A DNA stretch of 64,000 nt from Escherichia coli (GCF_024223415.1 NZ_CP100502.1); one strand, 5' to 3'; shown: positions 14,061 to 64,000, counted from the first letter of the stretch. Program-made: numbers and translations. Notes: generated by a model from the sequence alone, not told the origin.

Positions 14061-14212
14061 GACAAAGTCTCCATTTCTGGAATTTAAATCAAACGGAAAG
14101 GTTAAAAATTTATTTGCAGGCGATAAGAGCTAACCAGAGGAATTAGCCGTGCGATAAAAGGATTGTTGCAGATACGAAAGTCGTTAGAATAGCTGCGGGC
14201 GCTTGAGGCTGT

Positions 14213-14497
14213 ATGCCGAAAGCGTTTTGTGGACGGTATACAGCAGAAAGCCCCTGGAGATTTTTTTATCAATCAACCAAGGGCTCTACTGTAATGCCTA
14301 GACAACATTATAGTAGCCCGATAACCGCCGTAAGGCAATGGAGGGGCTATGATGCCACAGCGAACGTTTTTAATGATGTTAATCGTCATCTGTGTGACGA
14401 TTCTGTGTTTTGTCTGGATGGTGAGGGATTCGCTTTGCGGACTCCGGCTCCAGCAGGGAAACACAGTGCTTGTGGCAACGTTAGCCTACGAAGTTAA
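14213..14497 (+). CDS. pndC: PndC-like overlapping reading frame (mok-type translational coupler for pndA); true start uncertain
   Basis: ORF overlapping pndA in another frame and ending 7 nt before the pndA stop, as in hok/mok architecture. Confidence 0.35.
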   Translation: MPKAFCGRYTAESPWRFFYQSTKGSTVMPRQHYSSPITAVRQWRGYDATANVFNDVNRHLCDDSVFCLDGEGFALRTPAPAGKHSACGNVSLRS

Positions 14498-14504
14498 ACG
14501 TTAA
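14352..14504 (+). CDS. pndA: PndA, Hok-family type I toxin, 50 aa
   Basis: Not in ORF track (<60 aa). Translation MPQRTFLMMLIVICVTILCFVWMVRDSLCGLRLQQGNTVLVATLAYEVKR; SD ggagggg; Hok signature (SLC..R, LAYE). Confidence 0.85.
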   Translation: MPQRTFLMMLIVICVTILCFVWMVRDSLCGLRLQQGNTVLVATLAYEVKR

Positions 14505-14575: not shown

Positions 14576-14827
14576 TCAATGAAGCGTATCCGGTATTGTT
14601 TCATTTTCCCTGAAGCCGATTAGCTCCAGCCGAATGCCTTTGCCATCGGGGGCCACGTTCTGCATTTCGCAGATACCACGTCGGGTCATGAGTGTGAAGG
14701 CTGTCATTGCCAGCATGGCTAACGCGTTTTCCTCGCTTCCGCTGCGTTTCTCGAGAGCATCGGCAATTTCTTCTATGCTCCCCACCTGAAAGCAAGAGTC
14801 GAATTCTTTACTCCACTTTTCTGACAT
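14576..14827 (-). CDS. Hypothetical protein, 83 aa
   Basis: ORF track only; weak SD. Confidence 0.35.
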   Translation of the reverse strand: MSEKWSKEFDSCFQVGSIEEIADALEKRSGSEENALAMLAMTAFTLMTRRGICEMQNVAPDGKGIRLELIGFRENETIPDTLH

Positions 14828-14980
14828 CGGATTTTCTCTCTGTATTTATGGGTAGTTATCGAACTGAATGTGCCAGTTTTTTCAGGAGACGGCAAAGTTG
14901 AGATGATTGGTTCTGATTCAGAGCATGAGTTTCCTCGGTGTGACGGGCATGTCGGGCGGATTTTGAGAAACAACAGATGT

Positions 14981-15011
14981 AAAAAAACCGACTGGTGAGG
15001 TCGGTTTTTTT
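14981..15011. terminator. Bidirectional rho-independent terminator
   Basis: aaaaaaa-ccgac-tggtgag-gtcgg-ttttttt. Confidence 0.65.
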
Positions 15012-15043
15012 ACTGTTCCGTTACAGAGTGGGTGGCCCTGACC

Positions 15044-15068
15044 GGAGGAAATCTCTTTTCAACTAACG
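15044..15068 (+). repeat. 25-nt direct repeat copy 1 (ggaggaaatctcttttcaactaacg)
   Basis: Near-identical copy at 15231-15255; first 10 nt complementary to gatttcctcc at 15300-15309. Confidence 0.8.
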
Positions 15069-15230
15069 TTCTTATAATAGCGAGCTGTTCATTTGATAGC
15101 AACCATCCTTATAATCCGCAGGTTAGCTCTGTCTGGCGACACTTCTGCCGTGATATCCATCGGGACTATGGATGCAAGATTTTAAGTCCTGGCTGAACAA
15201 ACAGGTGGTGCTGTGTTCAGTGCTCTGGCA

Positions 15231-15255
15231 GGAGGAAGTCTCTTTTCAACTAACA
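15231..15255 (+). repeat. 25-nt direct repeat copy 2 (ggaggaagtctcttttcaactaaca)
   Basis: See copy 1; lies ~70 nt upstream of the DinQ-like mini-ORF. Confidence 0.8.
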
Positions 15256-15325
15256 CTGAAAGTGCCGTTGTGACAGGCAATGTAAGAGTAAGCAACGGTG
15301 ATTTCCTCCAGTGATGGAGAAGCGG

Positions 15326-15421
15326 ATGATTAATCTGTTAATCATCGTTCTCAGGGCAGTAGTTGCCGTTGCAAACGCGCTGATTGCTGTTCTGGAACTG
15401 ATCCGGGAACTTGTCGACTGA
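15326..15421 (+). CDS. DinQ/TisB-class small hydrophobic peptide (candidate type I toxin), 31 aa (35 aa from ATG 15314)
   Basis: Not in ORF track. MINLLIIVLRAVVAVANALIAVLELIRELVD; resembles E. coli DinQ (..ALIALLELIRFLL.. as I recall); SD ggag; hairpin follows at 15443-15469. Confidence 0.5.
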   Translation: MINLLIIVLRAVVAVANALIAVLELIRELVD

Positions 15422-15442
15422 TAAGCCTGGAAACGTAACTAA

Positions 15443-15469
15443 GGGCAGGGAGTTACCGCTTCCTGCCCT
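15443..15469. terminator. Hairpin agggcagg-N11-cctgccct after the mini-ORF
   Basis: 8-bp stem; weak T tract. Confidence 0.4.
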
Positions 15470-15485
15470 TTAACAAAAAGAGATC

Positions 15486-15662
15486 TCACGTTAAAAATTT
15501 GTACCCTTCTTTAACTTCCAGTGCCTGCTCCTTTGACTCAAACATCAGTCTTGTTTTCCCGGGAACGCCCCATGAAATGTATTCAACATCTATCCACCAT
15601 TTTCCATATTCTTTATATGGCCCGGATATTACTTTTTTGACAAAGGCGTCTACCAGATTCAT
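15486..15662 (-). CDS. Hypothetical small protein, 58 aa (MNLVDAFVKKVISGPYKEYGKWWIDVEY...)
   Basis: Internal ATG of ORF 15486..15770 with SD aagga; AT-rich region. Confidence 0.4.
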   Translation of the reverse strand: MNLVDAFVKKVISGPYKEYGKWWIDVEYISWGVPGKTRLMFESKEQALEVKEGYKFLT

Positions 15663-62913: not shown

Positions 62914-63232
62914 CTAAAAACGCTATCACCGAGTTCCTACGCTCATTGGTGATAGCCCAGACGGGGGTAGGAATACCGGCGTCATCGGAAACCGGCCAGG
63001 CTAATGCCTGCCCCGCCTGAGCTACCATAGATGACGACAAGAAATACAAGTTCCTGTCTTTATGGTATGGCAAAAAACGACGCCAAATGAAGAAATTAAC
63101 TTCTGCGCCGACGATGACTACGCGGGTTCCTACGCCCGATCACAGTTTTGCCTGTGACCAGTAAAGGGTACTTAGTATAACGCACCGAGTCAACTAACAG
63201 CTTAAAAAACATACAAAAAAGCGTCAAAACTT

Positions 63233-63705: not shown

Positions 63706-63892
63706 AATGCTTTTCAAATTAACGTAAAGCGGGTATATTTCGGCTGTTATTAGCTGTGCAGAGGGTGGCACTCTGTGGAGCAAAGCGGCGAAAGCCGGAC
63801 GGCAGAATGCGCCATAAGGCATTCAGGAGAGATGGCATGTACGGACAGTAAGTCAGAAGACTGAAGATGTTCCGGAAGCCATAAAAGGAAAA

Positions 63893-63943
63893 CCCCCACT
63901 ATCTTTCTTACGAACTTGGCGGAACGACGAAAGATAGTGGGGG
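63893..63943 (+). ncRNA. Stem-loop with 15-bp perfect stem and UUGGCG in the loop: candidate structure I of an I-complex (IncI1/B/K/Z) RepZ mRNA leader, the target of the antisense Inc RNA
   Basis: cccccactatctttc-[ttacgaacttggcggaacgac]-gaaagatagtggggg; rep genes would lie beyond the window end. Confidence 0.45.
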
Positions 63944-64000
63944 CCTCACAGAATACGGGTAAAGTATAATGAAACCGTACCAGAGATTCAACCCTGTGCA

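Follow-up and report, generated by a model that had tools for sequence, protein, structure and literature searches.

An R64-type IncI1 plasmid carries an agrB/dqlB type I toxin-antitoxin module, most likely an addiction system, with a dinQ-like mRNA leader

Translation of the small toxin gene dinQ is controlled by a four-element mRNA leader that has been established by SHAPE, compensatory mutants, in vitro translation and RNase III assays (PMC5066626). Pairing of leader elements 2 and 3 (duplex 2:3) frees the Shine-Dalgarno (SD) sequence and hairpin 3:4 sequesters it; element 3 is released for hairpin 3:4 either by duplex 1:2, which forms in the primary transcript, or by binding of the antisense RNA AgrB to element 2 (PMC5066626). 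The dql family, which includes the plasmid-borne gene dqlB, was defined in 2016 (Kristiansen et al., PMC5066626), and antisense RNAs for dql loci are predicted in T1TAdb. In 2025 the system was validated on two types of plasmid. DqlB of pOXA-48 is toxic and produces ghost cells, and agrB supplied in trans rescues the cells and abolishes the killing that follows plasmid destruction; the same study reported dqlB in 67.4% of IncI1 and 83.2% of IncB/O/K/Z plasmids (PMC12365149). Similarly, the agrB-dqlB pair of the IncX3 plasmid pOXA-484 is toxic, is neutralised by agrB and stabilises a plasmid (PMC12317039). The system is also present in NCBIfam and RefSeq, and is thus already known.

Here we describe a member of this family in a 64-kb stretch of Escherichia coli plasmid DNA (64,000 nucleotides, NZ_CP100502.1; the window below means this whole stretch), where a reading of the sequence alone had pointed to a DinQ-like mini-toxin gene accompanied by direct repeats. 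The locus is 100% identical to that of R64 (NC_005014.1), which places the plasmid in the R64-like IncI1 type, and is flanked by trbA/pnd on one side and excA/traY on the other. We conclude with high confidence that this R64-type IncI1 plasmid carries here its agrB/dqlB module, a type I toxin-antitoxin pair for which a role in post-segregational killing (addiction) is the most likely one. The toxin gene and the signals of its predicted transcript lie at the following positions.

15326-15421, plus strand: dqlB coding sequence, 31 codons plus stop, encoding one hydrophobic helix that ends in a charged C-terminal tail.
15110-15115, plus strand: dqlB -10 box (TATAAT), aligning with the dinQ -10 box TATGAT.
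15122-15475, plus strand: predicted dqlB primary transcript (204-nt 5' UTR, ORF and terminator).
15441-15470, plus strand: dqlB terminator hairpin, AAGGGCAGGGAG / CTTCCTGCCCTT then TTTAAC, an inverted repeat that aligns with the dinQ terminator.

The 31-aa peptide translated from ATG 15326, MINLLIIVLRAVVAVANALIAVLELIRELVD, matched the NCBIfam equivalog model NF041473 ('DinQ-like type I toxin DqlB') over profile positions 1-31 of 31 with 67 bits against a cut-off of 35. The model for DinQ proper (NF041472) reached 20.7 bits, below its cut-off of 30, in a match limited to residues 18-29. The peptide has a GRAVY of 1.89, with 2.67 in its best 19-aa window, and holds the DinQ signature residues (..IIVL...ALIA.LELIR..), which are conserved in 16 dqlB loci. 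The proposal of a DinQ-like hydrophobic membrane peptide was therefore correct. The likeness also drawn to TisB-class peptides was not borne out: a scan of the peptide against NCBIfam at E<=1 returned the DqlB and DinQ models only, with no match to the TisB or ShoB families. On the RNA side of the TisB/IstR and ShoB/OhsC pairs, Rfam gave AgrB and a sub-threshold OrzO-P match (see below). Nor is the ORF unannotated, as had been supposed, since for plasmids with 100% identity, R64 (NC_005014.1) among them, RefSeq gives the CDS as 'dqlB: DinQ-like type I toxin DqlB'. The same CDS is left blank in several submitter-annotated GenBank records, and submitter annotation still often misses dqlB.

Three candidate starts (GTG 15311, ATG 15314 and ATG 15326) lead to the same end at 15421, stop codon included. 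The variable N-terminal extensions (MMEKR..., MSLLHLWRKR...) show no conservation, a point in favour of a start at ATG 15326. From there the 31-codon frame proved intact, without frameshift, in 16 of 16 diverged dqlB-type loci, with changes that are mostly synonymous or V/I/L swaps; one such locus differs from the window ORF by 11 synonymous and 2 non-synonymous codons (L020). Unlike the conserved ORF, the leaders of these loci are only 53-82% identical to the window leader. The retention of 31 codons with mostly synonymous change next to such diverged 5' UTRs argues against the ORF and repeats being a decayed or chance remnant without present function. So do the identity of the 500-nt locus at 99% or more in 482 PLSDB plasmids (with lower-identity matches in at least 5000 records), the covariation of the AgrB/target and 2:3 pairs, and the scores above threshold for both family models. 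The weak -35 box of dqlB and the four mismatches between AgrB and its target, both described below, would fit such decay, to which we give almost no credence.

The repeat GGAGGAARTCTCTTTTCAACTAAC occurs exactly twice in the 64 kb, at 15044-15067 and 15231-15254, where none is expected (100 shuffles). Two copies of 25 nt had been claimed; the two copies stand, and the 25th base does not, being g in one copy and a in the other. The repeat extends to 33 nt (15035-15067 and 15222-15254), of which 29/33 are identical. Copy 1 coincides with an antisense RNA gene on the minus strand, and copy 2 with its target.

15035-15067: repeat copy 1; the minus strand encodes the AgrB 5' interaction region (repeat search, duplex with the target).
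15222-15254, plus strand: repeat copy 2, the AgrB target in the dqlB 5' UTR; it includes element 2 and corresponds to the dinQ agrB antisense region G88-A119.
14979-15066, minus strand: agrB-like antisense RNA gene (antitoxin) of about 88 nt (Rfam RF02891).
15074-15102, minus strand: agrB promoter of the sigma-70 type, TTGCTA, 17-nt spacer, TATTAT (promoter scan).
14979-15013, minus strand: AgrB intrinsic terminator, a 14-bp stem followed by a U run (terminator scan; inverted repeat 100% complementary).

Rfam RF02891 (AgrB) matched at 15066-14979 on the minus strand over the full model (1-84) with 55.3 bits (gathering score 40). The model starts 7 nt beyond the end of the -10 box, and most of the 33 AgrB homologues examined have a TTGCAA/TTGACA-type -35 and a -10 box at this upstream position. 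The gene aligns with K-12 agrB and agrA, -35 and -10 boxes included. The RNA is predicted to fold with a free 5' end of 21 nt, a small stem and the terminator hairpin (dG -27 kcal/mol, z -3.3). Because the minus-strand AgrB match, with its own promoter and terminator, covers copy 1, the single-stranded 5' end of AgrB is transcribed from this copy, and copy 2 is the target in the dqlB leader. That the repeats might be templates or targets of Agr-like antisense RNAs had been suggested from the sequence, and the RF02891 match and the complementarity at 29/33 nt (four mismatches) confirm it. The duplex of the first 38 nt of AgrB with the window target was calculated at -52.1 kcal/mol, rank 2 of 20 targets. 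A second small RNA (AgrA) was sought by an Rfam scan of the whole 64-kb window, which gave the single AgrB match only. A match to the Rfam model OrzO-P was dismissed; it scored 33.6 bits against a threshold of 60 and covered only the terminator that it has in common with AgrB.

On the opposite strand, positions 15110-15475 can be aligned base by base with the 331-nt K-12 dinQ transcript, from its mapped +1 (GUUAGCUCUG) to its terminator, and by homology with this +1 dqlB transcription would start near 15122. Most dql loci keep a TATAAT/TATACT box 6-7 nt ahead of the GTTAGC/GTCAGC +1 motif. The dqlB -35 is weak, and the promoter scan made no dqlB promoter call. The dqlB and agrB promoters are arranged back-to-back and overlap, with the agrB -35 (15097-15102) placed between the weak dqlB -35 and the dqlB -10. 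The predicted dqlB transcript folds with a z of -4.97. Its terminator is common to a convergent ORF at 15486-15662 on the minus strand, and the terminator stems covary across the dinQ/dql family.

The comparison of promoters bears on a different role, in which DqlB would be an SOS-inducible, LexA-repressed stress toxin like chromosomal dinQ, serving DNA-damage physiology and not plasmid maintenance. The dinQ operator CTGTATGATTATCCAG overlaps the -10 box; the window has TCCTTATAATCCGCAG there, with no CTG half-site. Chromosomal dinQ loci retain the operator; like the window, the other plasmid dqlB promoters examined are without it. The SOS/LexA analogy raised by the sequence-only reading thus fails at the promoter, and the only nearby CTG-N10-CAG site (15189-15204) is internal to the transcript (67-82 nt in) and part of the conserved 5' UTR stem SL2 (CAGGUGGUGCUG). 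The same 20-mer has been predicted as a dqlB LexA site on the IncI1 plasmid pTF2, with a heterology index of 11.64 (PMC12211044). However, SL2 has CAG..CUG in dqlB and CGG..CCG in dinQ, and RNA structure accounts for the conservation of the site; one-mismatch matches to the CTGT-N8-ACAG core are also frequent (50 in the window). DqlB was not detected among SOS-induced proteins (PMC12211044), and its homologues act as addiction modules (PMC12365149, PMC12317039). We consider a DNA-damage role very unlikely and LexA control of the window dqlB unsupported, and retain plasmid addiction as the preferred reading.

The dqlB leader has the architecture of the dql family, with four elements and the mutually exclusive pairings 1:2, 2:3 and 3:4, of which 1:2 is weak here.

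15138-15149, plus strand: element 1 (GACACUUCUGCC), by positional homology with dinQ U16-C28.
15231-15240, plus strand: element 2 (GGAGGAAGUC), within repeat copy 2.
15300-15310, plus strand: element 3, the anti-SD (GAUUUCCUCCA), pairing with element 2 (open) or with the SD (closed).
15315-15319, plus strand: element 4, with the SD GGAG at 15316-15319; pairs as 3' strand with 15306-15310 in the closing hairpin.

The SD lies 6 nt ahead of ATG 15326 and 6 nt past the arm at 15300-15309. The first 10 nt of the repeat had been described as the reverse complement of this arm. For copy 1 (15044-15053) the complementarity is perfect; for copy 2 (15231-15240), the one within the leader, it is 90% as DNA, and all 10 of 10 positions pair as RNA with one G-U.

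Conservation of these pairings was assessed in 28 distinct dinQ and dql transcripts, taken from plasmids (IncI1, IncI-gamma, IncK2/Z, IncX3, IncX4, IncX5, IncL/M and pESI types) and from chromosomes of Escherichia, Citrobacter, Serratia and Pantoea. In the 2:3 duplex 96.8% of cells were paired and 5 of the 10 pairs were changed on both sides; the covariation score was reached by 0/500 shuffles, and slid controls were 46-65% paired. The SD hairpin was 97.1% paired across the same 28 homologues. No column-wise compensatory change was found in it in this set, the SD being nearly invariant and the compensations shifting the register, and for this reason the hairpin was assessed by local folding of each sequence. 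It formed in 17/17 distinct sequences folded locally, with register-shifted compensations such as CUCCCU/AGGGAG and GCUCU/GGAGC. The family membership of both genes, their complementarity, the promoter and terminator matches, and the conservation and covariation of the elements are shown directly.

Folding of the window RNA gave a pair probability of 0.89-1.0 for duplex 2:3 and of 0-0.11 for the SD hairpin when AgrB was left out. When 15222-15254 was masked, which mimics bound AgrB, duplex 2:3 fell to 0 and the SD hairpin rose to ~1.0, so that the RNA folding check proposed with the original reading did support an AgrB-dependent switch. Within the family the arm is functional, but the sign of the switch is the reverse of what had been expected. 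The arm had been thought to hide the ribosome-binding site; since it is homologous to dinQ 2:3 (PMC5066626), covaries as such and responds to masking as described, the pairing 15231-15240/15300-15309 would tie up the anti-SD and open the ribosome site rather than hide the SD.

The original sense of the arm, in which it hides the ribosome site itself and the folded leader is 'off', with AgrB acting by another route, deserves consideration because the 2:3 helix of the isolated leader can be extended by pairing CUCU 15223-15226 with GGAG 15316-15319, and because the SD is mostly paired in every predicted state (unpaired probability 0.02-0.28, with 0.69 for one base in one truncated form). Against this, the homologous dinQ 2:3 is the open, translated state and AgrB closes the SD hairpin (PMC5066626), and masking of the AgrB target carries the SD hairpin from near absence to near certainty. 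Moreover, in two homologues (L019 and L013) the SD is AGGGA and the anti-SD is altered to match, with GCUCUGG unchanged, which favours 3:4 over CUCU:GGAG. We regard an SD-hiding arm as unlikely, and take 2:3 to be the open pairing in what follows. The 'open' folds produced by ViennaRNA pair the SD with CUUCU 15142-15146 or CUCU 15223-15226, and for that reason thermodynamics alone is no proof of an accessible SD.

Element 1, together with GUUAG at 15122-15126 (a/a'), provides the 5' strand of a predicted locking stem, S1, against the AgrB target region. The S1 duplex of the window 5' segment with its own target was calculated at -24.3 kcal/mol versus a non-cognate mean of -21.6 (rank 5 of 23). 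No case in the family is weaker, and ranks of 1-2 among about 23 are found for most homologues. The 2:3 duplex is present in the minimum-energy fold of the full transcript as well as in that of the 5'-truncated one, and in both the SD is partly paired elsewhere. Because S1 is weak and the full-transcript minimum-energy fold already has 2:3, a dinQ-like need for 5' processing is uncertain for the window dqlB. A thermodynamic proof of '+1 closed / processed open' was likewise abandoned, as both folds hold 2:3; the folding supports an AgrB-dependent switch and not processing.

By homology with dinQ and with the validated plasmid copies, from which transcription start, processing, toxicity and addiction in R64 itself are likewise inferred, the module may operate as follows. 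DqlB, a peptide related to DinQ, would damage the inner membrane. In the translatable form of the mRNA, element 2 (15231-15240) would pair with element 3 (15300-15309), keeping the SD (15316-15319) from the closing hairpin. The free 5' end of AgrB, complementary to 15222-15254, carries the same GAUUUCCUCC as element 3 and would compete with it for element 2. Once AgrB sits on element 2, the displaced element 3 would let 15306-15310 fold with 15315-15319, and translation would be blocked; by analogy with dinQ, the AgrB/mRNA duplex may also be an RNase III substrate. The 5' end of the primary transcript (15122-15149) can be predicted to pair with the target region, or else directly with the SD, which would lock the mRNA further. 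Upon loss of the plasmid AgrB would decay and the toxin would be made.

The chromosomal dinQ-agrAB locus of K-12, located between arsR and gor, is homologous to the window locus at the nucleotide level over the whole transcript and the small RNA, and has in common with it the four-element switch (1:2, 2:3 and 3:4) and the antisense target inside the 5' UTR. The peptides have a hydrophobic helix and the ALIA-LELIR core in common (11/17 identical); DqlB of the window has 31 aa and an ATG start, whereas DinQ has 27 aa and a GTG start. The window locus is plasmid-borne and has one AgrB without an AgrA paralogue, whereas K-12 has both agrA and agrB at arsR-gor. Unlike that of K-12 dinQ, the window promoter is without a LexA operator, and stem S1 is weaker than in K-12. 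The distance from the AgrB start to the dqlB start is ~55 nt in the window, where the promoters overlap, compared with ~315 nt in K-12. We calculated cross duplexes of -34.9 kcal/mol for window AgrB with chromosomal dinQ and of -30.0 kcal/mol for K-12 AgrB with the window target. Both are weaker than the non-functional AgrA-dinQ duplex (-42.7 kcal/mol) used as a benchmark, and cross-talk of the plasmid AgrB with the host dinQ system is therefore not expected from these models.

The two validated plasmid toxins, of pOXA-48 (IncL) and of the IncX3 plasmid, have 31 aa and are each 25/31 identical to the window DqlB. Their loci resemble that of the window in leader architecture, SD hairpin, terminator and conjugative plasmid backbone, and in the IncX3 locus AgrB is, as here, upstream and divergent (Rfam, 47.8 bits). 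They differ in that their 5' UTRs are only 53-64% identical to that of the window and in the specificity class of AgrB and target, with cross duplexes of -28 to -37 kcal/mol versus -52 for the cognate one. At E<=0.01 the Rfam model misses the pOXA-48 agrB, which has diverged too far. An Rfam search for agrB beside the IncL/M dqlB loci (L027-L029) gave no match at E<=0.01, and these loci were left out as AgrB donors of the AgrB/target matrix described below. The window locus is a member of a known, validated system, and the R64 copy would by homology function in the same way. It adds nothing conceptually new, since the family, the RNA switch and the addiction role are published and the gene is named in RefSeq.

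A Hok-family ORF, pndA, lies at 14352-14504, about 820 bp upstream of the dqlB ORF, close to the ~800 bp estimated beforehand, and an Rfam match to sok (RF01794) at 14197-14354 scored 134 bits. The suggestion that the plasmid may carry two type I systems side by side is therefore upheld, with pnd (Hok-family ORF and sok) next to agrB/dqlB. The hok/sok-type pndCA (14197-14504) resembles agrB/dqlB in being a type I system with a small membrane toxin, control by mRNA folding and antisense RNA, and a role in plasmid addiction. The RNA and protein families (sok; Hok/Gef) are unrelated to those of agrB/dqlB, and the modes of action differ: Sok overlaps its target in cis and acts via a leader ORF, whereas AgrB is encoded apart and acts in trans via the 33-nt repeat. 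R64-type IncI1 plasmids thus contain, side by side, two type I addiction systems that work by different mechanisms, pnd and most likely agrB/dqlB. This bears on plasmid curing and on plasmid-targeting antibacterials, since a cell whose plasmid is destroyed can die if it is not provided with the antitoxins, as was shown for pOXA-48.

Specificity of the antitoxin was modelled by scoring 33 Rfam-detected AgrB genes against 20 distinct mRNA targets. The cognate target ranked 1-2 of 20 for most of the 33 AgrB genes. In a 10 x 10 matrix cognate duplexes were -52 to -65 kcal/mol, compared with about -17 to -50 between classes; non-cognate duplexes of up to -61 kcal/mol occurred only within the same class. 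On these calculated energies the specificity classes appear to be mutually orthogonal.

The two halves of the locus differ in their distribution. Among PLSDB plasmids, 940 carry the toxin half (15311-15475) at 99% identity or more, and only 485 carry the half with agrB and the leader (14975-15310) at that level. Plasmids with identical or 1-nt-different ORFs (a pESI-like one, L019, and an IncI-gamma one, L018) have leaders 56-67% identical to that of the window, and every such leader is accompanied by a matched AgrB. Two complete agrB/dqlB pairs, of different classes, are present on one IncI1/B/O plasmid, and an IncK2/Z plasmid has an orphan agrB of the R64 class, with the toxin absent. These diverged leaders with matched AgrB in ORF-identical plasmids, and the plasmids with a double pair or an orphan agrB, suggest that agrB and the dqlB leader evolve and recombine as a separate 'specificity cassette' swapped among plasmids with the same toxin ORF, a possibility that we put forward only tentatively and hold to be less probable than its absence. 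In the dinQ/dql literature cited here we found no description of such diversification of type I antitoxin specificity. Cassette exchange, if true, would be in keeping with a selective advantage in avoiding neutralisation by an antitoxin RNA from a co-resident or competing plasmid, and orphan agrB genes would then serve as anti-addiction elements.

The two halves of the agrB/dqlB module differ in how widely they are conserved. The toxin ORF with its 3' end (window 15311-15475) was found at ≥99% identity in 940 PLSDB plasmids, whereas the agrB-plus-leader half (window 14975-15310) reached ≥99% identity in only 485. The same division is seen within a single locus: in L019, from a pESI-like plasmid, the ORF has 0 nt differences from the window, while the 5' UTR is just 56% identical and the locus has a matched AgrB of its own. 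Taken together, these sequence comparisons suggest that antisense specificity cassettes have been swapped by recombination near the SD.

Loci with additional agrB copies were also found. On the IncK2/Z plasmid NZ_AP022224.1, the agrB gene at L022:43-130 belongs to the R64 specificity class but is an orphan, with no dqlB beside it; immediately downstream of it comes a complete agrB/dqlB pair whose class is different. The orphan gene may act as an anti-addiction element, or it may simply be what a deletion left behind. On an IncI1/B/O plasmid (L020) the two pairs are both complete and lie in tandem, at L020:699-1188 and L020:1428-1872. Two dql-type loci in tandem were likewise detected by BLAST in a Citrobacter amalonaticus contig of 169 kb, which is probably chromosomal:

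L014:7078-8242, three AgrB-family genes

Only the first of these dql loci was extracted and aligned. Of the three AgrB RNAs, one fits its target well, at -56.4 kcal/mol; the others fit this same target poorly (-25.9 and -43.4 kcal/mol).

The promoters of the window's module are divergent and physically overlap:

15087-15115, + strand, dqlB promoter
15074-15102, - strand, agrB promoter

The corresponding start sites are ~55 nt apart, in contrast to K-12 dinQ/agrB, where ~315 nt separate them and agrA lies between. The dqlB and agrB promoters might compete for RNA polymerase.

The predicted minimum-energy structure of the whole dqlB transcript has the 5' segment CUUCUGCCGU (15142-15151) paired directly with AUGGAGAAG (15314-15322) in the SD region, and the 2:3 duplex (15231-15240 with 15300-15309) is present together with this pairing. 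The thermodynamically predicted CUUCUGCCGU:AUGGAGAAG pairing could be an alternative 5' lock, unlike the 1:2 pairing of the dinQ model. The leader also contains a LexA-box-like sequence, CTGGCTGAACAAACAG, at 15189-15204, published for plasmid pTF2 as a putative dqlB SOS box (PMC12211044). This site is inside the transcribed leader, within the conserved stem SL2. Its CTG/CAG ends belong to an RNA helix that covaries, which makes a role as an operator unlikely.

The module is flanked by two small conserved hypothetical ORFs, which accompany it in several plasmid types (L018, IncI-gamma; L019; L022):

14576-14827, - strand, 83 aa, on one side of the module
15486-15662, - strand, 58 aa, convergent on the dqlB terminator

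Two further RNA matches were obtained near the window end:

62945-63032, - strand, C4 antisense RNA (Rfam RF01695, 77.5 bits)
63885-64000, + strand, repZ pseudoknot (Rfam RF01087), truncated by the window edge

The repZ match marks the replication control region that an IncI1 plasmid is expected to have. The C4-type match, to the family of immunity RNAs of P1/P7-type phages, lies ~850 nt upstream of it.
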